Source: Escherichia phage slur02. Taken from it: a DNA stretch of 64,000 nt. Of the stretch, positions 2,396 through 44,048 are shown piece by piece; positions within the stretch are counted from its first letter, which is position 1, and the number at the start of each line of letters is the position of its first letter. The notes below the pieces were generated by a model that saw nothing but the letters and a program-made list of their open reading frames with translations, did no database searches and was not told where the DNA came from. Position numbers and translations under genes: made by a program. The stretch lies in sequence record NC_028927.1; one strand, written 5' to 3'.

Positions 2396-2730
2396 TTCAT
2401 AATCACCAGATAAGCAGATTTAGCAGTTTCTACACGATAAATTTCGTGACGAAGTTTAGTTATACTTTTAATAACAGAACTAATTATATTCTGCCCATCT
2501 TTAAAGCGGTTTTTCTTATCAATAAAAATTGCGCCAACCAGCTTTTTGTGAAGCTCAACTGGATACTTCGTCACAATAATAGCATCATACACAGAAGGAT
2601 GAATACTATTCACTAGAGTGTCATTCATTAAAGTTATTCTAATGAACTGTGCTGTTTCAGAGTCAAGCGCTCTATGATCGCCAGTATCATTTTCAAGACA
2701 ATTATCAATTATATCAGTTAAATTCATCAT
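2392..2730 (-). CDS. hypothetical protein (112 aa)
   Basis: ORF track; 4-nt overlap with cd start (coupled). Confidence 0.5.
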   Translation of the reverse strand: MMNLTDIIDNCLENDTGDHRALDSETAQFIRITLMNDTLVNSIHPSVYDAIIVTKYPVELHKKLVGAIFIDKKNRFKDGQNIISSVIKSITKLRHEIYRVETAKSAYLVIMK

Positions 2731-2963
2731 AGTACGCCATACACCCTTTGTGCTTCAACTAATCCATCAAAATCCAATTTGAGATGTGTTATTTGATCAC
2801 CATCACCTGGATTCACAATTACTAATACTGAACGAGGAGTTTCGGTAATAACGCGAACCGATGTTTCTGGAAATCGTTCAGAAACCTTATTTACCAATTC
2901 CTGAGCAAATAGTTTAACTTTTTCTTGGAATTCTTTAACAGTAATTGGTTTTTCACTTAGCAT
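2727..2963 (-). CDS. hypothetical protein (78 aa)
   Basis: ORF track; overlapping stop/start with neighbours. Confidence 0.5.
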   Translation of the reverse strand: MLSEKPITVKEFQEKVKLFAQELVNKVSERFPETSVRVITETPRSVLVIVNPGDGDQITHLKLDFDGLVEAQRVYGVL

Positions 2964-3502
2964 GTTGATCCCAGCTCCTTACTTTCAACGTTTTTAACTA
3001 ATTTGACAGAAACTAATTCGGCATCTTGGGTAATCATTACCGGGCCTTCTTCATACTCTTCAAGATATTCTAGAGCTTTCTTTTTAGCTTCTTCCTTCGT
3101 ATCAGTTTGAGCATAGATATAAAACATGCAACCACCAGTAATACCTACTACTTTCCACTTAATTTCTTTATCAGTTTTAATTTCAAATTTACTGACAGAA
3201 TCATCTTTTTGAACTTCTTCGAAAAAATAATATTCTGACATATAAGTAATTGAAAATAGCGGGCTATCTTTATAGCATTCGCCCATTACATCAACAGCTT
3301 TATACCAGCAGTCATCAATTTCGCGTTTAATGCTAATAACATTCTTCGCGGGATCAATTTTTACTTTAAATGAATTTTCATCAATAAACTGGGCAATTCG
3401 TTTATTAGCCCCACAAGTTTCATTAAAAATATCTTTATATCCAGCTTTAAAGCGATAAACCTTATCTTCTTCAAACCATTCGCTCATTTTCAATTTCCTC
3501 AT
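2957..3502 (-). CDS. hypothetical protein (181 aa)
   Basis: ORF track; early promoter immediately upstream. Confidence 0.55.
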   Translation of the reverse strand: MRKLKMSEWFEEDKVYRFKAGYKDIFNETCGANKRIAQFIDENSFKVKIDPAKNVISIKREIDDCWYKAVDVMGECYKDSPLFSITYMSEYYFFEEVQKDDSVSKFEIKTDKEIKWKVVGITGGCMFYIYAQTDTKEEAKKKALEYLEEYEEGPVMITQDAELVSVKLVKNVESKELGSTC

Positions 3503-4028: not shown

Positions 4029-5443
<1,415 letters not shown>

Positions 5444-6875: not shown

Positions 6876-8463
<1,588 letters not shown>

Positions 8464-29592: not shown

Positions 29593-30378
29593 ATGGCAAT
29601 TGTAGGTGTTCCTGGCTGGATTGGTGAATCTGCCGTGAATGAAACTGGACAACGTTGGATGGATGCTGCAATGAGAGCAGTCCGTGTTTCAGTTCCCGGT
29701 TGGATGAGCTCAATGGCCGGACAATCTAAAGAAGTATATTATAGCATTGGTGCTAGTAATTCTTATAATAAAGATACATTAATAAACTGGATAAAAGCCC
29801 AAGGCAGTACTCCTGTTGTTATTACTATTACAGGAAATATTGTTTCTCAATCTACTGGTGTTCCATGCTTAGATTTTCCTAGCTCATTAACTAATGCATA
29901 CGTGACACTTAATATCAATTCAGGCGTGCATGTTTGGGGCCGTGGCGGGAATGGCGGAAATAACTCTGCCGGTGGAGCAGGAGGAACTGCAATAAATAAT
30001 GGAATTGGAACTAGATTGCGTATTAACAACAATGGTGTTATCGCAGGAGGCGGTGGAGGCGGTGGAGGCGGATATTATTCTCCTTTTTCACAAATGAAAT
30101 TGACTTTTGGCGGTGGCGGCGGTCGTCCATTTGGTGCTGCTGGCGGGTCTGCTAATATGGAACAGGGCGCTACTGCTGGTACTATTTCTGCACCTGGTAA
30201 AGGGTCTGTCAATGGTATCTATAATGGCGGGAATGGCGGTGATGCTGGTGCCGCAGGTGGTAAATGTAATATTCGTGGGCAAGGATCAGAATATAACGGC
30301 GGTGCGGCCGGTAAAGCTGTTACTGGTAATGCTCCAACTTGGACTAAGGTTGGTACAATATATGGTTCAAGAGTATAA
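29593..30378 (+). CDS. 38: gp38 receptor-binding adhesin, T2-type with glycine-rich motifs (261 aa)
   Basis: Conserved N-terminus MAIVGVPGWIG; several poly-Gly motifs (GGGGGGGGGYY, FGGGGGRPFG) separated by variable segments; 261 aa versus 183 aa T4 gp38. Confidence 0.85.
   Translation: MAIVGVPGWIGESAVNETGQRWMDAAMRAVRVSVPGWMSSMAGQSKEVYYSIGASNSYNKDTLINWIKAQGSTPVVITITGNIVSQSTGVPCLDFPSSLTNAYVTLNINSGVHVWGRGGNGGNNSAGGAGGTAINNGIGTRLRINNNGVIAGGGGGGGGGYYSPFSQMKLTFGGGGGRPFGAAGGSANMEQGATAGTISAPGKGSVNGIYNGGNGGDAGAAGGKCNIRGQGSEYNGGAAGKAVTGNAPTWTKVGTIYGSRV
30046..30072 (+). repeat. 9-bp tandem repeat (ggaggcggt)x3 encoding poly-Gly in gp38
   Basis: Read directly; second shorter Gly-codon tract at approx 30109-30123. 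Confidence 0.7.
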
Positions 30379-33159: not shown

Positions 33160-33795
33160 TCACAGTTCAGATGCTACGGTGATTACTGCTTCAATGTTTT
33201 CTGCCGAGCGTTTAATGTCAAGATACACATTACCGTTTTTAGCGATTTTACATGACATTCCGATATCAGTAAATTTCTGAATATGATGTTCCATCATTTT
33301 GTATCCAAAAATTCGCATATTTCCATTGTTGTTAATTTCAAAATTGCGAATTCCGTGAGTGCGTTTTTCTAAAATAGCAAGATAGTTACTGCGGTAAGTT
33401 TCAACCTTTTTAAGAACAAATCCATTTTCATCTAAAAGTTTTAACATGAAGTCTTTATCTTCTTCCATATCGGAAGTAATCTCACGAGCTTTACGAGTCG
33501 CCCGTTTTTTCAGTAGTTCAGGAGCATTTTCCTGCGCATATAAAGTTGCTGCATTTGAAATAATATCCTGAGCTTCACCAGTAATGATTAATCCATCACC
33601 AGATTTCTCCACCAGGCCTTTTTTAATCAATACCCCAATATTACTATTAACTACTGCGTTACCTAAATCTGGATGCACCTCACGAACTTCTGCAGCTGTA
33701 ATGAAATCTTTCTTAGCAATAGTAATTAAAATCGCAGCGGTTTTTTCATTCAGAACATCGTTAGAAGCTTTGATGATGTAAGTTACTTTAGACAT
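33160..33795 (-). CDS. motA: MotA middle-transcription activator (211 aa)
   Basis: 211 aa as T4 MotA; synteny with 52. Confidence 0.9.
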   Translation of the reverse strand: MSKVTYIIKASNDVLNEKTAAILITIAKKDFITAAEVREVHPDLGNAVVNSNIGVLIKKGLVEKSGDGLIITGEAQDIISNAATLYAQENAPELLKKRATRKAREITSDMEEDKDFMLKLLDENGFVLKKVETYRSNYLAILEKRTHGIRNFEINNNGNMRIFGYKMMEHHIQKFTDIGMSCKIAKNGNVYLDIKRSAENIEAVITVASEL

Positions 33796-33836
33796 TTTCT
33801 AATCTCCGTAATTCTGTATCAGTAGTTGATAGTTGT

Positions 33837-33866
33837 ATAGTACCACAGTATGCTTTGGTTGTAAAC
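33837..33866 (-). promoter_or_regulatory. T4-type early promoter for motA (GTTTAC-N18-TACTAT)
   Basis: Minus-strand GGTTTACaaccaaagcatactgtggTACTATAcaactatcaactactgatacag; near-identical to promoters at 16635 and 37703. Confidence 0.55.
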
Positions 33867-33875
33867 CGTTTTGTG

Positions 33876-33916
33876 AAAAAAATTTTAAAATAAAAAGGGA
33901 GAGCCAAGGCTCTCCC
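33876..33916 (-). terminator. terminator hairpin (GGGAGAGCC-AAGG-CTCTCCC) + T/A-rich run
   Basis: 8 bp GC stem read directly, immediately upstream (on minus strand) of the motA early promoter. Confidence 0.6.
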
Positions 33917-33921
33917 TAAAA

Positions 33922-34071
33922 TTACTGCATGACTGTGATAACTGTCATGATAACACGTTGAATTCCGAACGCAAGAAGACCTCCTGCTACGGCTGGAACA
34001 ACGCCTAAACCCGCCAGTAAAATGCTACCGGATACTAATGCAGCGCTTGTAATACCAATGAATGGACTCAT
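33922..34071 (-). CDS. possible small hydrophobic protein (approx 49 aa)
   Basis: Hand translation MSPFIGITSAALVSGSILLAGLGVVPAVAGG...; ATG overlaps gene 52 stop (ATGA); below track cutoff. Confidence 0.4.
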   Translation of the reverse strand: MSPFIGITSAALVSGSILLAGLGVVPAVAGGLLAFGIQRVIMTVITVMQ

Positions 34072-35396
34072 TTGATTTCCTCTAAATCTTTAGTGTATTC
34101 AGTAACTACATCAGTAGTTTTCCAATATTCGTTTTCTTCTTTCTTAGCTTTAGCTTCTTCAGCAAGTTTCTTCGCTTCATCGGAAGTCATATGAAAAATA
34201 TTCATTCCAACTAGTTTATCAACATAAGAAGAATACATATCGATTTTCGAAAGTTCTTCGGTCAGTTCTTTACGAGTTTTACCTTGTACAACAATTTCAC
34301 CTGAAATTACTTTCTTAATGAAATGTGCCTTGGCAAAGGCTAAACGAAAAGCTGACTCAGTTTCTTTGATTTTGTTATCAATTCGTTTTTGGACATAAGT
34401 TTTACGAACTTCAACAAAGTCTTTAATTAAATCGACTACGTTATCGTAAACTTGTAGCTTTCCTTTCTCATTAATAACGGTAATATTTTGGGAACGACGC
34501 TCAATCAACCCAAAGTCTTTCATAATTTTTGCATGGCGTTCTTCTTCATTATCGCTCAAAGAATATTCTTTACGGAATTTAACTTTAAAGCCAAAACCAT
34601 GCTCACCACAAGCATCATCCCATGTAATGAAGCCTTTATCTTCAAGTGGGTCTAAGATTTTACTCACATAAGTTTCACGATCATACTTATACGGAATCTC
34701 AGTGATGTGCATTTGAGTTCGTGAAGTAAACTTATATGTTCCACGAATTTCATATTGTCCATCAATTTCAACGACTTCACCACGAAATTCTGGGAATTCT
34801 ACCTTCGGTTTAGTTACTTTCTTTCCTTGAAGAGCTTGTAGTACAGCTTTCTTGACAGAAGAAACACTATGAGGAAGAATGTAAGTTGCATAACCAGTTG
34901 CAATACCGGAAACGCCATTAAGAAGAACAGTAGGAATAATAGGCAAATAGAAAGCAGGCGGAATGTGTTCTTTATCTTGATGTACCGGAGCATACTCAGT
35001 ATCTTTATATACGTTATAGAAATTTTTACTTACACGAGCAAAAATATAACGACTTGCTGCTGCTTTTTGGACAGTACGAGAACCAAAGTTTCCTTGACCA
35101 TCTAACAGAGGAAAGTTATTATTCCAAGTGTTAGCCATCAAAGCACCTGCGTCTTGCGCAGAGTTTTCACCATGATGATATCCAAGGTCCGCTACACCAC
35201 CTGCAATAGAAGCGAGTTTGTGAAACTTATCTTTATTTCCTCGTGCCAAATCAAGAGCTCGAGCAATAACAAATCGTTGAACTGGCTTAAATCCATCAAT
35301 CATATTTGGAATAGCACGATTTTCAACCGTGTACATAGCATAAGCCAATGCTTCATTATCAATGATACTTTTTAAATCGCGATTATTCAGTTGCAT
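34068..35396 (-). CDS. 52: gp52 DNA topoisomerase II medium subunit (442 aa)
   Basis: 442 aa; GyrA-like cleavage-domain motifs (PVQRF, active-site AAxRY region). Confidence 0.9.
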   Translation of the reverse strand: MQLNNRDLKSIIDNEALAYAMYTVENRAIPNMIDGFKPVQRFVIARALDLARGNKDKFHKLASIAGGVADLGYHHGENSAQDAGALMANTWNNNFPLLDGQGNFGSRTVQKAAASRYIFARVSKNFYNVYKDTEYAPVHQDKEHIPPAFYLPIIPTVLLNGVSGIATGYATYILPHSVSSVKKAVLQALQGKKVTKPKVEFPEFRGEVVEIDGQYEIRGTYKFTSRTQMHITEIPYKYDRETYVSKILDPLEDKGFITWDDACGEHGFGFKVKFRKEYSLSDNEEERHAKIMKDFGLIERRSQNITVINEKGKLQVYDNVVDLIKDFVEVRKTYVQKRIDNKIKETESAFRLAFAKAHFIKKVISGEIVVQGKTRKELTEELSKIDMYSSYVDKLVGMNIFHMTSDEAKKLAEEAKAKKEENEYWKTTDVVTEYTKDLEEIK

Positions 35397-35400
35397 AAAT

Positions 35401-35541
35401 TTACCATACTAGTGAATGTAGTGCCATAATAACATCAGAAATGAAAAGCACGACTTGAATTAATCCGAACATTATTCCGTAATATAATGCTATCAATAAA
35501 ATAGCAAGGGCTAATGAATAGCCCAAGATTTTCTTAATCAT
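35401..35541 (-). CDS. possible small membrane protein (approx 46 aa)
   Basis: Hand translation MIKKILGYSLALAILLIALYYGIMFG...; start overlaps the stop of the upstream small ORF (TAATG); approx coords. Confidence 0.35.
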   Translation of the reverse strand: MIKKILGYSLALAILLIALYYGIMFGLIQVVLFISDVIMALHSLVW

Positions 35542-35692
35542 TAGTAGATAACAACACAAATGTTAAATATGCACACATACCCTGAGCTAAAGCTTGCGAA
35601 AACACACTGCTGGCATCAATACAGATAGTTAAAACACATGCTACTATCCAACAAATAAATGAAATAACTCCTAATAATTTTGCAATATTCAT
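35541..35692 (-). CDS. possible small membrane protein (approx 50 aa), perhaps the ac-like ORF
   Basis: Hand translation MNIAKLLGVISFICWIVACVL...; position of T4 ac (52.1); approx coords. Confidence 0.35.
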
Positions 35693-35699
35693 ATTTTCC

Positions 35700-35780
35700 T
35701 CACTGGTGTCCGAAGACGCCTTTGGTTTTAAGATTGTTACGATAGAACTGCATCACGTGTTCGTTGTGGAAATTACTCAT
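35700..35780 (-). CDS. stp: Stp peptide (26 aa)
   Basis: Hand translation [26 protein letters not shown] matches recalled T4 Stp; start overlaps ndd stop. Confidence 0.7.
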
Positions 35781-36238
35781 TAATATGCCTGCAAAACAAA
35801 TTTAAAGTTATCAGCCAACATACGGTTCATTTCTTCAAGTGTTTGATACTCAGAATGATGATTACGAGTAAACGCTAAAGCTAACTGTCCTTTTCCAAAT
35901 CCCGTCGTCAGAGGTTTCATCTTAGAAGCAGGCAGATAAAATACTGTGTATGGAACATTGTTATTTGCAATAGTACGTGCAAGTTGAGACCGACGCTGGC
36001 GAATATGACTTAGAACCGCACTGAATCCTTGCTTAGAACGCTGATTACCTACATAAAATCGTGCAGACACACATGGATTACTAAATGGACGACCATCTAA
36101 TTTACTTACTAAAAAGTAAAATCCAGGTTTAGATAAAATATCTTTATGCGGAGTTCCTAAAAACCATTCACCACCCTTGATTGTACCAATAACAGTTGCG
36201 CCTGCATTATTCAGATCAGTAACAGTCATGTATTTCAT
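35780..36238 (-). CDS. ndd: Ndd nucleoid disruption protein (approx 152 aa)
   Basis: Track ORF trimmed to internal Met (MKYMTVTDL) preceded by GAGGAAATTAAT; size and position as T4 ndd. Confidence 0.75.
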
Positions 36239-36298
36239 ATTAATTTCCTCTAAATTATTTTCTACTCCAAGGCCGCATAAATACACACGGCCATTAAA

Positions 36299-36514
36299 TT
36301 AATCGTCGCAGTCGACGCTCAATTCCCAAAACTCTTCTACAGTATAAGTTTCAGTATCATTTTCAATACAGAAACGTTCATTACTGTTATTTGCTAAAGT
36401 AGCGTTAACTGTCATTTTCTCGCTGGTGCTCTTAAGAGGTGAAATACGAATTAACTGATCACCGTTATCTAAACAGAAAATTTCACCAACTTTTACATCT
36501 TTAAAGATTTTCAT
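36299..36514 (-). CDS. hypothetical protein (71 aa)
   Basis: ORF track. Confidence 0.5.
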   Translation of the reverse strand: MKIFKDVKVGEIFCLDNGDQLIRISPLKSTSEKMTVNATLANNSNERFCIENDTETYTVEEFWELSVDCDD

Positions 36515-36630
36515 AATTCACCTCAAGGAGTATAAAATCCAAATGCAGTTGTTGACCATCCCATCCAATACGGAAAAATTTGCACCAATGTAAAACATAA
36601 GAATATAAAACCAAATGTTTAGTAAATTCA

Positions 36631-36849
36631 TTATTTTACACCATTCCAAATTGTTTCAACCACAGATTTTAAACCATTTTGATGAATATCAATTCCGACT
36701 ACTGTCATCAAATAGATTCCAACTACAACTGAACCTAAGGCAAAAATCAGCATGAAAATGAATAAAGCCGGAAAAATATTATCGAAAAACCATTCAATAA
36801 ATGTAAAAGCACTGCGTTTACGCTTCATATTTTCCTCACATAAATCCAA
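36631..36849 (-). CDS. hypothetical small membrane protein (72 aa)
   Basis: ORF track; hydrophobic core. Confidence 0.5.
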   Translation of the reverse strand: MDLCEENMKRKRSAFTFIEWFFDNIFPALFIFMLIFALGSVVVGIYLMTVVGIDIHQNGLKSVVETIWNGVK

Positions 36850-36949
36850 AGTAAACGTTTAATACATCAATCATTAAAACGATTGGGAATATACTCAAAA
36901 CTATTAGTATTATAACTACATTCCATATAGCTTTAATAATCTTTTTCAT
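36836..36949 (-). CDS. small membrane protein (approx 37 aa)
   Basis: Track ORF 36836..37084 trimmed to the internal Met (MKKIIKAIWNVVIILIVL...) preceded by GGAGGAACAGAAA, because an early promoter lies in the 5' part of the track ORF. Confidence 0.4.
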   Translation of the reverse strand: MKKIIKAIWNVVIILIVLSIFPIVLMIDVLNVYFGFM

Positions 36950-36977
36950 TTTCTGTTCCTCCGTAGTTGATAGGGTA

Positions 36978-37007
36978 ATAATACCACGGAAGAACAGTCC
37001 TGTAAAC
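36978..37007 (-). promoter_or_regulatory. T4-type early promoter (GTTTAC-N18-TATTAT)
   Basis: Minus-strand tTGTTTACaggactgttcttccgtggTATTATtaccc (approx coords). Confidence 0.5.
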
Positions 37008-37192
37008 AACTTTTTTAAAAATATTCGTAATAAATGTGAATACCAACTACTACCGCTGAAACCTGTGCAACCCACCACGCACAAGCAATAAGTACAGAAT
37101 TCATAATTTTCATAATAACCTCATCACAAAAGTAAATGTTAAACAAATTACTGGAATACTAATTAACCAAACAAAACACCACCATAGTGAAC

Positions 37193-37465
37193 TCATAGCT
37201 CAATCTCAGCGATTTTCATTTCATTACTATTAATAGCCGCTTTAAGACTATCTGAAAGAATTACATTCCAGTGGTCATTCATATGACCATTAATTAAGCG
37301 TGTAATTTCTTCTGGAGTTGAAAAATAAGGCGTATCAGACTCCCAATGCGATAATCCTAAGCGAGTATAAATCATACCTTCATCATCGCTAGAATATTCA
37401 ACTGACACAAACTCATCAGTTATTTTATGTTTAGCGTAATAAAATTTAAATTTCATTTTACTCAA
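37193..37465 (-). CDS. hypothetical protein (90 aa)
   Basis: ORF track. Confidence 0.5.
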   Translation of the reverse strand: MSKMKFKFYYAKHKITDEFVSVEYSSDDEGMIYTRLGLSHWESDTPYFSTPEEITRLINGHMNDHWNVILSDSLKAAINSNEMKIAEIEL

Positions 37466-37680
37466 TAATCCGCTAAAAGATCGACGATTGCATCACGAAG
37501 ACACTTATTCGCAATACGTTTAAGAGCAATTTCAGTTTCTGGAGCATTTTGAATAATCATCGAATTCAACTCAGCCTCAGCAAACTGAAGTTCTTTAACT
37601 AGTTCAGCTTTATATTTCCCTTGCCCTTTCTTAGCCTTTGCCCGTTTTAATTCAGCTGTAGTAAACATTTTATTCTCCAA
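37462..37680 (-). CDS. hypothetical protein (72 aa)
   Basis: ORF track; early promoter upstream. Confidence 0.5.
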   Translation of the reverse strand: MENKMFTTAELKRAKAKKGQGKYKAELVKELQFAEAELNSMIIQNAPETEIALKRIANKCLRDAIVDLLADY

Positions 37681-37702
37681 ATCCGTATCAGTTGATAGTT
37701 GT

Positions 37703-37732
37703 ATAGTACCACAGTCCTTGTGGTATGTAAAC
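37703..37732 (-). promoter_or_regulatory. T4-type early promoter (GTTTAC-N18-TACTAT)
   Basis: Minus-strand cagTTTACAtaccacaaggactgtggTACTATAcaactatcaactga with AT-rich upstream element. Confidence 0.55.
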
Positions 37733-37750
37733 TGTTTTATGAAATTTTTT

Positions 37751-38308
37751 TTAAATAGAAAGATACCATCCGTTGTAGTTGCTTTTTCTTACAACCTTAC
37801 GAAGGTCTTCTCTGTCACCGATGAACTTCGGAGTGTACTGGATGACACCTGGATGAATTTCTTTAGTGTTGAATATAATTATACAGTCCGCGACTTGATG
37901 ATTTAGAATGGGCCCTAGATTTATTCCAGAACCGTATGGATACTCTCCGCTGCATCCTGTTGTTACAGAAATCCAACGTGAGTCAGTTTGGTGTGTCTTA
38001 ACTTCTACACGAAGCCCGCAGTATCTTGGATGCGCCAATACATCCCATGCGTATGTATACGGGTCATTAACATCTTCTTGACCTTTATTAACATATCCGC
38101 TTAGCCAATCTGCCACAAAAAACTCTGCGTACACAGCGATACGACATCTTTCGATAACTTCTGCTTTATCCTGGTTCGGGTTTTGTTTTAAAGAGTATCT
38201 TGCTGTATCAGCAATTTTGACCTTCATTTCACTAGTCAAGTCACTGTTCGATAGGGTAAATGTCGGAATCTGAAATAGTCTCTGTAAACCCGGATTCGTT
38301 TTCTGCAT
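37751..38308 (-). CDS. denB: endonuclease IV (DenB), 185 aa
   Basis: 185 aa as T4 DenB; position next to rIIB. Confidence 0.8.
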   Translation of the reverse strand: MQKTNPGLQRLFQIPTFTLSNSDLTSEMKVKIADTARYSLKQNPNQDKAEVIERCRIAVYAEFFVADWLSGYVNKGQEDVNDPYTYAWDVLAHPRYCGLRVEVKTHQTDSRWISVTTGCSGEYPYGSGINLGPILNHQVADCIIIFNTKEIHPGVIQYTPKFIGDREDLRKVVRKSNYNGWYLSI

Positions 38309-38570
38309 TTAGACTTTCCTTTTTGCCGCTGAGATAGGCGTTATATACTTTAAGAGTACCATAATAAATTCGGTCATTTTCATCTAAAGACTCGCGGTCA
38401 AGTTCATCGAGCTCCTTTTTATCCATGACTATAACATCATTACAGTAAAGAAACCCAAGTTTTTCGTGACCAAACTCAAATTTATTACAGTACACAATAT
38501 TAGCGTGATGATTTCCGTGCAGTTTAATCTCTTTTATGTCGGAATCACCGATATTCATACAATAAATCAT
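38241..38570 (-). CDS. hypothetical protein (109 aa), 3' end overlaps denB start
   Basis: ORF track; 68-nt out-of-frame overlap, start uncertain. Confidence 0.45.
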   Translation of the reverse strand: MIYCMNIGDSDIKEIKLHGNHHANIVYCNKFEFGHEKLGFLYCNDVIVMDKKELDELDRESLDENDRIYYGTLKVYNAYLSGKKESLNAENESGFTETISDSDIYPIEQ

Positions 38571-38584
38571 AATTTTTCCTTAAA

Positions 38585-38606
38585 ACAAAAGGGCCGAAGC
38601 CCTTTA
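38585..38606 (-). terminator. terminator-like hairpin (AAGGGC-TTCG-GCCCTT) + T-rich tail
   Basis: Read directly downstream of ORF 38609..38803. Confidence 0.5.
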
Positions 38607-38608
38607 TT

Positions 38609-38803
38609 TTACTTGAATTGTGCAATTCTTTTCTCTAGACATTCAGCATAAGATTTCATTGAGATGAACTGTGAAAGTAGTAGTTCTTGCTCAACTGCAC
38701 TAACTGTTAGAAACTTTGCGCTTTCTAAAAATTTGTTCAGTGCATTAATTTTGAGCATTAATTGATCGTATTCTTCTTTTACTCGTGCTTGATAACCTAA
38801 CAT
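38609..38803 (-). CDS. hypothetical protein (64 aa)
   Basis: ORF track. Confidence 0.5.
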   Translation of the reverse strand: MLGYQARVKEEYDQLMLKINALNKFLESAKFLTVSAVEQELLLSQFISMKSYAECLEKRIAQFK

Positions 38804-38831
38804 AATTTTCCTTAGTTAAGGGACGAAGCCC

Positions 38832-39770
38832 TTATTTAAATTGTTCAGTAACGTCTTCAACTACTTCGTATTGGCAGGTACGCATTTTAGCGTCGTTGTA
38901 ATCAATCGGAATTGATACTACATCGCGAGGATGTACTTTAACTTTTACAACTCGGCTGGTTGAACTGCCAAAGTGACGAATATAAGATTTAGAACACACA
39001 TGCAGACCACGAGAACAAGTTTGTGTATCATCGTCATTCACACGAGTACGTGGCATTTTAACTACTTTACCAGGACTGTTATCAAAGGTGTTTGAGTGAC
39101 AGTCAAAGTAATTGCTGCGAACTACTTTCCAAGCATAGAAGTAACCATCTTCTGTAATTTCAATATCGTTTGCTACCAAGAAATCAAAGAGTCGAGATAC
39201 AGCTTTTTGGCTTGGGTTTTCCAACAGATTTTCCAAGAACGGAAAATAAAATTCAAAGTTTTCGCCTTTTTCCATCGAGTCAAGAATACGATCAACCAAA
39301 CCAGACCGCAATTCGATATTTTGATAGAACAAGCTTCCACCTTCAATTCGAACATCACCGGAAATATATTTTTCAACAGCGCGACGAACATTAATTTTTT
39401 GTGCAGCTTCTTCCAGCTTATCCGCTACAAGCAGATTAAGAATTTCCTGGAAGTTTGAATGAGTATTAGGAGTTGCGTTATAAGTTACACCGTCAACAGT
39501 AATTGAAATGAATTTTTTAGATGCATTCCAAATAATGTCAGATTTAGCAACTGGAGCAATAACTGCATCGCTATTAACTTTAACTGTAATATCACCGCTA
39601 ATAGTAACTTTAGAGCGTTTAGCTTCTTCAGCATTTTTCAAAACACGACGGATTGTGTCAACTGATACATCCTTCCAATAAGCCAATTCCTGTTGGGTGT
39701 AATTACCGCTTGAATACAGTTTAACAATTTCAGCTTGTTCGTTTTTGGTCAGGCATTTAATATTGTACAT
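38832..39770 (-). CDS. rIIB: rIIB (312 aa)
   Basis: 312 aa as T4 rIIB; directly follows rIIA. Confidence 0.9.
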   Translation of the reverse strand: MYNIKCLTKNEQAEIVKLYSSGNYTQQELAYWKDVSVDTIRRVLKNAEEAKRSKVTISGDITVKVNSDAVIAPVAKSDIIWNASKKFISITVDGVTYNATPNTHSNFQEILNLLVADKLEEAAQKINVRRAVEKYISGDVRIEGGSLFYQNIELRSGLVDRILDSMEKGENFEFYFPFLENLLENPSQKAVSRLFDFLVANDIEITEDGYFYAWKVVRSNYFDCHSNTFDNSPGKVVKMPRTRVNDDDTQTCSRGLHVCSKSYIRHFGSSTSRVVKVKVHPRDVVSIPIDYNDAKMRTCQYEVVEDVTEQFK

Positions 39771-42227: not shown

Positions 42228-44048
42228 CTACTGGCTCATCCATTCTTTACGAAGGTCAGCATTATCTCCCATGAGCATTTCAAAAAGCTCTTTCCAGTTC
42301 TCAGGAAGTTTAACAACATCATATACTGGATTTTGAATCATCTCACGATATTCAGATTTTTCCAAAGAGCCAAGTCCTTTAATATAACGGATGCTATGTT
42401 TAGGTAGAGCATCTTTGGCACTCTCATATTCAGCGACTGTATAAAACCATTCTTGTTTTTTACCGACCTGAGCGATGATTACCGGAGTTTTGACAAAGCG
42501 AATTCGTCCTTGCTCAAACAATTCTGGCCAATTACTAAAAAACCCGAGCAGAGAAGGATAAATGCTTCCTAGACCATCATGGTCAGCATCAGTCATAATA
42601 GCAATATTGCGATAATTCAAGTTTTCAGCTTTTTCACCAAGAACTAGACCAGTGATTGCGCAAATATCAAATAGTTCTTTGTTTTTAAGCATATCAGCAT
42701 ATGACATACCCCAACTGTTGAGAACTTTACCACGCAATGGATAACCACCATGAAGTTCTTTATCACGAACATCAATAAGATATCCGATAGCCGAATCACC
42801 CTCAGTCAGGAAAAGAGTAGTGTCAGCATCTTTACCACAAAGATTCGCTTTGATATGTTTATGAACTTTAGCTTTAGAAGCCTTTTTAGCTGCTTTAGTT
42901 TCAGCTGCTTTTTCTGCTGCCAATTTACGGGCCAAGGCAGCTTCAATAATTGGCATCAAAATAGCTTCATTATTTAGAATAGCGCGTGAAATCTTTTTAG
43001 CATCAAGCTGAATATGACTACGAATTTCGCCAAATGGAGAAGTCAAACGCTCTTTAGTTTGAGAATCAAATCGCATGTTTTTCATATCACGAACAAACAT
43101 AACGATAGTCAAACATTCTTTAACACGTGCTTTAGTTACATCAATTTTGAATTTACGTTTGATTTGTGGAATAAGGTCTTCACAAATATCATCCATAACG
43201 CAGTCAATGTGATGGCCACCATTCTTAGTGTGAATGTTATTCACATAAGTTAATTGACGAAATCCATCCGGTGAACGACCAACCGCAATAGAACAATTTT
43301 CTTGTTCTTGAACAATAGCATGTTCATCATACTGTCGTGCATATTTCTTAAAATTGCCCTGAACCTTTTTACCATTAAAGGTAAATTGAATATCAGGATA
43401 AACAACAGCAAGTGTCTGGAGACGATCTAGTGTAATGTCAAGATAAACTTGGGACAGCTCATTAGTTTCAAATGACATAAAATCAGGAATGAAAGTAACA
43501 CGAGTTCCTTTCCATTTTCCAGGAATAGTTTCCCAGGATTTATTTTCCATGCCATTTGAACAACGAACTACAATATTATTTTGACCATCGCCAGTTTCAC
43601 CGACAAACATCACAGAAAAAATGTTAGTTAAACTAGAACCAACACCATTCATACCACCGGTGACGCGTTCTTTATCATCACCAAAGTTACCACCTGCTTT
43701 TGGAATAGTCCAAGCAGCAACTGGGCCAGGAATTTCTTCACCGGTAGGTGTTTTAACCATCGCTTGTGGAATACCGCGACCGTTATCTTCAACTGTTACC
43801 TGATTATTTTTAATGGTAACATTAATTTTATTTGCGAATTTAAACTTAGTACGAATACCTTCATCTACTGAGTTATCGATAATTTCATCAATAAGCTTAA
43901 CAAGACCAGGTACATACTGAACACTTTCCCATTTACCAAACAGAAAGCGCTCATGCATTTCATTAGCTGAAGAGCCAATGTACATGCCGCTACGCTTTTT
44001 GATATGTTCAATATCGCTCAGAATTTTAATTTCATTCTTAATCATCAC
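42228..44048 (-). CDS. 39: gp39 DNA topoisomerase II large (GyrB-like ATPase/Toprim) subunit, uninterrupted 606 aa form
   Basis: GHKL ATPase and Toprim motifs (EGDSA); 606 aa, about the length of T4 gp39 plus gp60 combined. Confidence 0.9.
   Translation of the reverse strand: MMIKNEIKILSDIEHIKKRSGMYIGSSANEMHERFLFGKWESVQYVPGLVKLIDEIIDNSVDEGIRTKFKFANKINVTIKNNQVTVEDNGRGIPQAMVKTPTGEEIPGPVAAWTIPKAGGNFGDDKERVTGGMNGVGSSLTNIFSVMFVGETGDGQNNIVVRCSNGMENKSWETIPGKWKGTRVTFIPDFMSFETNELSQVYLDITLDRLQTLAVVYPDIQFTFNGKKVQGNFKKYARQYDEHAIVQEQENCSIAVGRSPDGFRQLTYVNNIHTKNGGHHIDCVMDDICEDLIPQIKRKFKIDVTKARVKECLTIVMFVRDMKNMRFDSQTKERLTSPFGEIRSHIQLDAKKISRAILNNEAILMPIIEAALARKLAAEKAAETKAAKKASKAKVHKHIKANLCGKDADTTLFLTEGDSAIGYLIDVRDKELHGGYPLRGKVLNSWGMSYADMLKNKELFDICAITGLVLGEKAENLNYRNIAIMTDADHDGLGSIYPSLLGFFSNWPELFEQGRIRFVKTPVIIAQVGKKQEWFYTVAEYESAKDALPKHSIRYIKGLGSLEKSEYREMIQNPVYDVVKLPENWKELFEMLMGDNADLRKEWMSQ

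Follow-up and report, generated by a model that had tools for sequence, protein, structure and literature searches.

A T4-type cluster of small early genes between gene 52 and denB in Escherichia phage slur02

Introduction

Between gene 52 and denB of Escherichia phage slur02 (NC_028927.1) lies an interval of mostly very small open reading frames (ORFs), at positions 35397-37700 of the 64,000-nucleotide (nt) stretch that was analysed as a whole and is called the window here. The locus raises the question of whether such a chain of short ORFs represents real genes, how they would be translated and what their products might do. An earlier reading, made by a model from the sequence alone, had described the region as a chain of translationally coupled micro-ORFs including stp, and had regarded most of their products as uncharacterised and as plausible effectors of host takeover or counter-defence. 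Our analysis indicates that the region is very probably the non-essential cluster of early genes that T4-type phages carry between gene 52 and denB, here arranged as in RB14 and slur04.

Results and Discussion

Identity and gene content of the cluster

The assignment concerns the identity and the gene content of the cluster, and we make it because of the DNA identity to slur04 and RB14, the gene-by-gene match to T4, RB14 and Bas45 and the PHROG and Pfam matches. All 2304 nt of the interval are 100% identical to Escherichia phages slur04, slur11 and slur13 (Tequatrovirus), identity to RB14 and many other T-even phages is 96-97%, and a megablast search with the interval gave 558 matching phage records. 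Every gene of the interval is located on the minus strand, with gene 52 and denB (38308-37751) as the flanks. Twelve ATG-initiated ORFs of 26-152 amino acids (aa) follow one another head to tail on this strand (Table 1), and seven of them are only 26-52 aa in length.

The cluster is already known and is not new, as every ORF is named in the T4, RB14 or Bas45 annotations. The T4 reference record names 52.1, ac, stp, ndd, ndd.1, ndd.2, ndd.2a, ndd.3, ndd.4, ndd.5 and ndd.6, the 87-aa and 68-aa ORFs are added in the annotations of RB14 and Bas45, and all twelve are annotated in Bas45. The micro-ORFs have thus not been overlooked, since they are named in the T4 record and each belongs to a PHROG family, and the sequence-only reading is not right in counting Ac among the uncharacterised products, as its genetics are known.

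Table 1. Genes and transcription signals of the cluster and the functionally linked repair genes. SD, Shine-Dalgarno sequence; TM, transmembrane; pN/pS, ratio of non-synonymous to synonymous variation. Junctions are given from the stop of the listed gene to the start of the next one.
Feature	Position	Strand	Product, matches and signals	SD (kcal/mol)	Junction to next gene (nt)	Variable sites at codon positions 1/2/3
Early sigma-70-type promoter upstream of orf68	37731-37703	-	TTTACA-N17-TACTAT, TG extension; inside 66-nt repeat			
orf68 (RB32ORF266c type)	37668-37462	-	68 aa, soluble, basic; phrog_4535 E=4.3e-24; own GGAG SD; pN/pS 0.03	-6.4	+5	
orf87 (RB14ncORF269c type)	37456-37193	-	87 aa, acidic, soluble; weak SD	-3.3	-4, ATGA	
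ndd.6	37196-37110	-	28 aa, one hydrophobic segment; phrog_8851 E=1.6e-17; weak SD	-2.7	-4, ATGA	3/0/6
ndd.5	37113-37015	-	32 aa, one hydrophobic segment; phrog_5011 E=9.4e-26; own GAGG SD		+65, holds promoter	2/0/9
Second early promoter, ndd.5-ndd.4 spacer	37006-36978	-	TTTACA-N17-TATTAT, TG-extended; repeat D1 copy 36965-37030			
ndd.4	36949-36836	-	37 aa, one TM segment, highest hydrophobicity of the set; phrog_3098 E=5.2e-21; strong GGAGG SD	-9.5	+7	
ndd.2a/ndd.3	36828-36631	-	65 aa; DUF7248 PF23906 E=6.5e-19; phrog_2401		-1, TAATG	4/3/21
ndd.2	36631-36518	-	37 aa as read here (frameshifted); phrog_4135	-5.2	+3	6/3/14 (canonical frame)
ndd.1	36514-36299	-	71 aa, acidic, soluble; phrog_2183 E=2.7e-38; pN/pS 0.09		+60	3/4/17
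Two adjacent RNA hairpins	36325-36271	-	At ndd.1 stop and in ndd.1-ndd spacer; minimum free energy -24.8 kcal/mol, z -2.58			
ndd	36238-35780	-	Nucleoid disruption protein, 152 aa; PF06591 E=1.4e-95, residues 1-152; 98% identical to T4 Ndd		-1, TAATG	
stp	35780-35700	-	26 aa; PF08133; weak SD	-2.5	+7	1/1/6
ac	35692-35534	-	52 aa, hydrophobic; phrog_2501 E=3.7e-25; 96% identical to T4 Ac		-8	0/1/7
52.1	35541-35401	-	46 aa, hydrophobic; DUF7396 PF24129 E=4.8e-22; no SD; start inside ac end	+0.9	+4	
Gene 52	35396-34068	-	Topoisomerase II medium subunit; weak SD	-2.8	-4, ATGA	
motA.1	34071-33922	-	49 aa, two hydrophobic segments; phrog_3487 E=2.2e-31; last cistron			
Intrinsic terminator-like hairpin	33917-33896	-	9 bp, 6 GC pairs, T-run; directly past motA.1			
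Third consensus-type promoter site	33865-33837	-	From promoter scan			
pseT	4218-5126	-	Polynucleotide kinase/3'-phosphatase; PF25109 E=3.6e-59; AAA_33 E=2.9e-23			
rnlA	6876-8036	-	RNA ligase 1; coordinates of GTG-extended ORF; PF20819 E=1.5e-39; PF09511 E=3.2e-25			

Evidence that the ORFs are genes

When ORFs that begin with ATG and reach 26 aa are counted, the minus strand contains exactly 12 of them, which together occupy 92.1% of it; on the plus strand the figure is 10.8%. In 2000 first-order Markov random sequences the mean coverage was 28.3% (standard deviation 9.9), with a maximum of 59.5%. The twelve-ORF chain exceeds chance and its protein-coding genes are real. All twelve ORFs match a PHROG family with E values from 2.8e-8 to 6.2e-65, and Pfam matches were obtained for stp, ndd, 52.1 (DUF7396, 78.3 bits) and ndd.2a (DUF7248, 68.1 bits; the cut-off for these DUF families is 27). 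The identification of stp and ndd in the sequence-only reading is thereby borne out by PF08133 and PF06591.

Conservation was analysed in an alignment of 17 Tequatrovirus loci, comprising the window together with T4, T2, RB14, RB32, Bas36, Bas45, fPS-2, DalCa, HY03, Shfl2, Pu-Krd-SF6 and five IMG/VR contigs. One locus each from Mosigvirus (Bas46), Gaprivervirus (PSD2001) and Dhakavirus (IME281) served as outgroups. An Ndd-based locus search of IMG/VR returned only 5 loci, for which reason GenBank records were used to build the comparison set. Variable sites among the 17 loci are mostly at codon position 3 (Table 1), and the seven ORFs of up to 52 aa show 19, 9 and 48 variable sites at positions 1, 2 and 3 when pooled.

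Across genera, 52.1, ndd.4 and ndd.6 keep their ORF length and motifs at 48-85% identity. The 52.1 protein is 70-85% identical in the other genera, its gene adjoins gene 52 in Mosigvirus, Gaprivervirus and Dhakavirus, and tblastn finds it in 708 phage records. Ndd.4 is 61% identical in other genera with the same length (36 aa in Gaprivervirus and Dhakavirus) and the common motif KAIWN..VLSIFPIV.MID; it is present in 595 phage records, and full-length tblastn matches of about 60-100% identity were counted in 594. Homologues of ndd.6 are 28-29 aa long in Mosigvirus and Dhakavirus, while Gaprivervirus gave only a partial tblastn match, where the recovered ORF is a truncated fragment of 19 aa. Transcripts of all cluster genes have been classed as early in T4, and in T4 infection the Ndd and Ndd.1 proteins have been detected, Ndd.1 early (PMC9697503 Table S2).

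Junctions and probable translational coupling

All the ORFs named in the sequence-only reading (52.1, ac, stp, ndd and a 37-aa ORF) are present in the chain on the minus strand, although ndd.4 (37 aa), ndd.5 (32 aa) and ndd.6 (28 aa) had been overlooked. That reading had them chained by overlapping ATGA or TAATG codons. Such overlaps exist at five of the 13 junctions between orf68 and motA.1, but the others are short gaps, one 8-nt overlap and two spacers of 60-65 nt. The packing is nevertheless tight, with 11 of the 13 junctions within -8 to +7 nt, and junction distances are identical in 14-17 of the 17 Tequatrovirus loci.

SD strength was calculated as the duplex energy between the 20 nt upstream of a start codon and the 3' end of 16S rRNA; -6 kcal/mol on this scale is reached by 5.7% of random 20-mers. 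Eight cistrons (orf68, ndd.5, ndd.4, ndd.2a, ndd.1, ndd, ac and motA.1) have a strong SD of about -6 to -9.5 kcal/mol, and among these ac, ndd.1, ndd.2a, ndd.5 and motA.1 have their own ribosome-binding site at -6.0 kcal/mol or lower. The SD of ndd.2 is intermediate. In the remaining five cistrons (orf87, ndd.6, stp, 52.1 and gene 52) it is weak or missing, and all five start between -8 and +5 nt from the preceding stop. Because a weak SD and a start close to the upstream stop coincide in them, these five cistrons are probably translationally coupled, as the sequence-only reading had proposed for the chain. Ribosomes that terminate on the upstream cistron would most likely re-initiate at them, and the proposed relays would run from orf68 via orf87 to ndd.6, from ndd to stp, and from ac via 52.1 to gene 52.

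The stp-ac and ndd.4-ndd.2a junctions have an identical 16-mer (sense GTGAGGAAAATATGAA, at 35688-35703 and 36824-36839; repeat D13), in which the upstream TGA sits within the downstream SD. At the latter junction the ndd.4 TGA is embedded in the ndd.2a SD GAGGAAAAT, and the version at the stp-ac junction is kept even in Gaprivervirus and Dhakavirus. In Shfl2 (NC_015457, locus 1871-2044) an additional hydrophobic ORF of 57 aa is present between ndd and stp, with a TAATG overlap on its upstream side and an 8-nt ATGAGTAA overlap on its downstream side, so that a cassette has been inserted with the chain unbroken. The conserved distances, the Shfl2 insertion and the common 16-mer would fit a constraint on the junctions.

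Several points weigh against the view that the cluster is a chain of translated and coupled genes. The coupling has been deduced from nothing but junction geometry and SD strength. A MotA-dependent middle promoter for gene 52 is probably also present within 52.1, where positions 35449-35426 read GCTTTTCATTTCTGATGTTATTAT and where the fPS-2 annotation has a 'predicted middle promoter'; with such a promoter, translation of gene 52 could not depend solely on the relay. Within Tequatrovirus, variation in ndd.4 is non-synonymous only (2/1/0 at codon positions 1/2/3) and 52.1 has a weak position bias (5/3/6), and therefore the coding status of these two rests mainly on their conservation across genera. 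Pairwise pN/pS values of 0.03-0.46 come from phylogenetically non-independent pairs. Shotgun proteomics of T4 lists 52.1, Ac, Stp, Ndd.2-Ndd.6 and MotA.1 as 'NA', not detected (PMC9697503 Table S2), which is expected for peptides so small and hydrophobic but leaves their translation as a prediction, and a literature search for a ribosome-profiling study of T4 found none. Finally, T4 carries a frameshift in ndd.2a, T2 has stops in ac and ndd.2a and slur04 has a frameshift in ndd.2; as these genes are disrupted in laboratory strains, individual members of the cluster are dispensable.

The ndd.2 frameshift and the split of ndd.2a/3

The 37-aa membrane protein of the sequence-only reading exists as an ORF (36631-36518), but it is a frameshifted ndd.2 private to slur04, slur11 and slur13; the conserved 37-aa protein nearby, with a predicted TM segment, is ndd.4. 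One extra T in the window gives a T5 run (A5 on the plus strand, 36574-36578) and shifts the frame after residue 19. In all 16 other Tequatrovirus loci the run is T4 or T3C and ndd.2 has its canonical form of 35 aa (35-36 aa in the family), reading MNLL..GANFPYWMGWSTTAFGFYTP*. Among the 313 records carrying this segment, T5 is found in slur04, slur11 and slur13 only. The phrog_4135 match to the window ndd.2 covers residues 1-19 only, and the variation in the 3' half of the gene is almost all synonymous in that frame. The C-terminal 18 residues of the window Ndd.2 would thus represent either an assembly (sequencing) error or a lineage-specific mutation, and not a conserved protein. We also considered rescue of ndd.2 by programmed slippage. 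A +1 slip of tRNA-Phe on the sense GCA AAU UUU UCC would restore the canonical frame, but this was rejected as the T5 run is short and nothing supports recoding; an error or a lineage mutation is simpler. The pN/pS of ndd.2 calculated in the window frame (0.46) was discarded because different frames are compared and the value is meaningless.

The neighbouring ndd.2a/3 is a single 65-aa DUF7248 ORF in 15 of the 17 Tequatrovirus loci, the other two being T4, in which it is split, and the T2 record, in which it is interrupted by a stop. A 1-nt deletion in T4 (NC_000866) produces the separate ndd.2a (40 aa) and ndd.3 (26 aa), and the reference annotation therefore describes a split gene.

Stp, PrrC and the repair genes

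The Stp of the window matches PF08133 over residues 1-26 of 26 (70.8 bits against a cut-off of 25) and phrog_6763 with E=1.2e-19. The sole difference from T4 Stp is R25H, residues 1-24 being identical, and this variant is common to 59 records; Stp is found in 612 phage records by tblastn, and in 59 of them it is at least 99% identical. Loss-of-function missense mutations map to the N-proximal 18 residues of Stp, which have been implicated in the interaction with EcoprrI (PMC3014915), and these residues are intact and identical to T4 in the window.

Stp binds EcoprrI and EcoR124I, both of them type Ic restriction enzymes, and inhibits them, with the consequence that the anticodon nuclease PrrC is unmasked in prr+ hosts. 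The cut tRNA-Lys is healed and sealed by Pnk (pseT) and Rnl1 (rnlA), and mutations in stp suppress the defect of pseT and rnlA mutants (PMC3014915). Both genes are in the window, functionally tied to stp through PrrC and located outside the cluster, pseT about 30 kb from stp. The sequence-only reading had grouped Stp with Pnk and Rnl1 as a counter-measure to PrrC. The repair role of the two enzymes stands, but Stp acts against restriction and in this way sets off PrrC (PMC3014915), because its inhibition of the restriction enzyme activates the nuclease, and it is not a part of the counter-measure; by its sequence, the window Stp would act in the same way.

Variants of this gene occur elsewhere. 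The Dhakavirus IME281 locus has a duplicated stp/ac-like module at about 2500-3200, in which the second copy of stp is joined to a 5' portion of 52.1, the chimeric junction being at a common GAGTAAT. The Gaprivervirus PSD2001 locus contains an intact, unannotated 26-aa stp at 2819-2896, and stp is missing from the Mosigvirus Bas46 locus. Beyond the T-even group, peptides resembling Stp (78-96% identity over 18-24 residues) are also encoded in the small, siphovirus-sized genomes of Ro145c2YLVW, Rtp and LHE71 (42-50 kb).

Ac and acridine sensitivity

The ac gene is encoded between stp and 52.1, in the same synteny as in T4, RB14 and Bas45. T-even phages with wild-type ac are sensitive to acriflavine, and those that have lost the gene are resistant (bioRxiv 10.1101/2025.06.30.662393; PMC13250531), and therefore the product name 'acridine resistance protein' is a misnomer. 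Ac causes acridines to accumulate in the infected cell, and the proposed mechanism is membrane insertion of Ac and a block of AcrAB-TolC; the G38R variant confers resistance, and an allele with an extra Thr, as in PP01, is still sensitive (bioRxiv 10.1101/2025.06.30.662393). The window Ac is the Thr-insertion allele with G38 present. The T2 record PV958097 has its in-frame stops at codon 11 of ac and codon 45 of ndd.2a/3, and it keeps orf68 and lacks orf87.

Promoters, hairpins and cassette structure

Two sigma-70-type early promoters, one upstream of orf68 and the other upstream of ndd.4, would drive polycistronic early mRNAs, which would run via ndd, stp, ac, 52.1, gene 52 and motA.1 to the terminator-like hairpin past motA.1. 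Terminators are annotated at this same place in the fPS-2 and DalCa records, and our statements on T4-type promoters rest on annotations in related records. Both cluster promoters fit the early-promoter/PeSL consensus TTTACW-N17-TAYWAT, which was described for PST/T4 (PMC4122927). The 66-nt repeat family D1 has three copies in the window, at 33824, 36965 and 37690.

Among the 17 Tequatrovirus loci, 16 retain the outer GGCCG/CGGCC stem of the two hairpins at the ndd.1-ndd boundary, and the inner stem and loop vary. The second hairpin has no U-tract after it, GGAG follows at 36268-36265, and the promoter/terminator scan gave a weak terminator-like match at 36317-36304. The three outgroup genera have a promoter-like TATAAT in a stem-loop directly upstream of ndd, and Gaprivervirus and Dhakavirus have an additional ORF between ndd.1 and ndd. 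Folding of the stp region gave no structure beyond chance (z +1.5), and an Rfam scan of 33500-39000 returned one sub-threshold chance match only. GGAG, the motif at which the T4 RegB endoribonuclease cuts, is also present in the SD of the first cistron past each early promoter (orf68, 37678-37675; ndd.4, 36962-36959), and the three GGAG sites may point to inactivation of the early mRNA.

The upstream end of the cluster is variable. The orf68 gene is present or absent as a cassette; it is carried by the window, RB14, Bas45, T2 and RB32 and missing from T4. Identity between orf87 alleles is only 52-54% in phages that are 95-99% identical in the flanking genes. A search for orf87 homologues gave 6 clusters only, indicating a narrow family, and the metagenomic protein P0004 is an in-frame fusion of orf87 and ndd.6. 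PDB sequence searches with orf87 and ndd.1 returned nothing significant.

Possible roles of the micro-proteins

Ndd disrupts the nucleoid, as known from the literature. The hydrophobic small products of the cluster are 52.1, Ac, Ndd.2, Ndd.4, Ndd.5 and Ndd.6, to which the 65-aa Ndd.2a can be added. Hydropathy analysis predicts one TM segment each in 52.1, Ac, Ndd.2a, Ndd.4, Ndd.5 and Ndd.6 and two in MotA.1, and Ndd.2 is just under the threshold used. In Ndd.2a the segment is combined with an N-terminal KRKR and an amphipathic tail. T4 with the deletion sa-delta-9, which removes 52.1 through denB, remains viable with its yield reduced to about half, and the rise in phosphatidylglycerol synthesis that the phage otherwise induces is lost (PMC6071114). 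Our literature search on ndd.2-ndd.6 and denB.1 found nothing on the phage genes.

Our best guess, which is put forward tentatively, is that the remaining micro-proteins may modify the host envelope at the inner membrane. A more elaborate proposal appears doubtful when all of its parts are taken jointly: the hydrophobic micro-proteins (52.1, Ac, Ndd.2, Ndd.2a, Ndd.4-6 and MotA.1) would form a coordinated inner-membrane effector set, made in fixed ratios through the translational relays, at least one of them would be the phosphatidylglycerol factor lost in sa-delta-9, and 52.1 might tether or regulate the membrane-associated topoisomerase subunit. The last part is suggested because 52.1 adjoins the start of gene 52 in four genera.

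It has to be asked whether 52.1, Ndd.2, Ndd.2a, Ndd.4-6, orf87, orf68 and Ndd.1 might instead be dedicated counter-defence effectors, each directed at one host immune system, as the sequence-only reading had suggested in more general terms. The presence of the anti-restriction peptide Stp in the same cluster, the non-essential nature of the block on laboratory strains, the hyperplasticity of the region around orf68 and orf87 and the repeated PeSL-type early promoters bordering the cassettes would all suit such a role. However, the hydrophobic micro-proteins are strongly conserved (pN/pS 0.1-0.4) and not fast-evolving, and apart from those of stp, ndd, ac and denB the only phenotype assigned to the block concerns lipid synthesis. 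Neither this analysis nor the searched literature provided evidence that supports a counter-defence role of the remaining micro-proteins, and we consider it unlikely.

A still less probable alternative is that some of the micro-ORFs are translated spacers, that is, relay or leader ORFs which feed ribosomes to ndd, gene 52 and other cistrons and whose peptides have no function. Gene 52 and 52.1 do stand without an SD in a relay behind ac, junction distances are conserved more strictly than some of the peptide sequences, the peptides escaped proteomic detection, and frameshifted or nonsense versions persist in viable phages. Against this, the amino-acid sequences of 52.1 and ndd.4 are conserved across genera, variation is concentrated at codon position 3, point mutations in ac (G38R, for example) have phenotypic effects and it is as a peptide that Stp works. 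That the chain is partly an artefact of chance short ORFs in AT-rich intergenic DNA is hardly credible, for although the ORFs are below gene-finder length and the last 18 residues of the 37-aa ndd.2 product come from a frame unconserved elsewhere, a coverage of 92% was never reached in the random sequences, every ORF has a homologue family, and the coverage test and the codon-position bias already largely refute this explanation.

Annotation of the cluster and neighbouring genes

That gene finders miss these small ORFs is confirmed by related records. The slur04 record is without 52.1, stp, ndd.2, ndd.4 and ndd.6, so that 5 of the 12 genes are unannotated, and notes in the RB32 record describe both 52.1 and stp as 'not predicted by GeneMarkS or Glimmer'. 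Among the tblastn matches listed, most records have no stp feature and about half have no feature at 52.1. Product names in related records can be misleading, 'acridine resistance protein' among them, and several look like artefacts of annotation transfer: ndd.4 and ndd.2a are called 'naphthalene 1,2-dioxygenase' or 'baseplate wedge subunit', and peptides in which one hydrophobic helix is predicted are called 'outer membrane protein' or 'periplasmic protein'. As a discovery the cluster carries little weight, since the T4 reference record already lists it and all of its ORFs belong to families. Its value is that of an annotation warning, as these small genes are often skipped or misnamed. Whether the cistrons that lack an SD are translated and coupled, which gene causes the lipid effect and what Ac binds are matters for the T4 field generally, and the gene map and junctions of Table 1 make the phospholipid gene, the Ac target and the coupling directly testable.

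Some observations were also made on genes near the cluster. The start of denB is ambiguous (37751-38308, minus strand): a 185-aa reading from the ATG at 38308 has an SD and overlaps a 109-aa ORF of RB32ORF268c type (38241-38570, minus strand) by 68 nt, and a 158-aa reading from 38227 has none, the latter start being used in the slur04 and Bas45 records. The topoisomerase II large subunit (42228-44048, minus strand) is one ORF of 606 aa with gp39-like and gp60-like parts (phrog_543 and phrog_7229), and this phage is therefore without the split gene 39/60 arrangement of T4. The 261-aa gp38 (29593-30378, plus strand) is a full-length match to phrog_2056 'tail fiber protein; host specificity'. We take it to be the long T2/T6-type adhesin and not the short assembly chaperone of T4.

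Comparison with known systems

AcrZ, a bacterial small inner-membrane regulator of 49 aa that binds AcrB, is similar to the Ac-type micro-proteins in size and in its hydrophobic architecture of a single or double helix, and the likeness is a functional analogy only. For Stp, the known counterpart is the PF08133 family 'anticodon nuclease activator', whose hidden Markov model is matched over its full length, with the C-terminal R25H as the difference. In its cassette structure the locus resembles the PeSL shuffling cassettes of T4-like phages (Arbiol 2010; Comeau 2014, PMC4122927), where repeated early promoters flank variable ORFs as they do here; an exchange at ndd.4/.5 is the example of cassette shuffling given in the PeSL paper itself (PMC4122927).

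The closest known counterpart is the sa-delta-9 region of T4 (NC_000866, 165209-166996), which has the same gene order, strand, neighbours (52 and denB) and junction geometry. The proteins are 93-100% identical between the two phages except for ndd.2, which is frameshifted in the window, and ndd.2a/3, which is frameshifted in T4 and consists there of two ORFs because of the 1-nt deletion, in contrast to the one 65-aa ORF of the window. Besides the ndd.2 frameshift, the window differs from T4 by one extra Thr in Ac and by R25H in Stp, and it contains orf87 and orf68, both of which T4 lacks. RB14 (NC_012638) and Bas45 PaulHMueller (MZ501098) are identical to the window in gene content, including the 87-aa and 68-aa ORFs, and differ from it only by point differences and by the frame of ndd.2.

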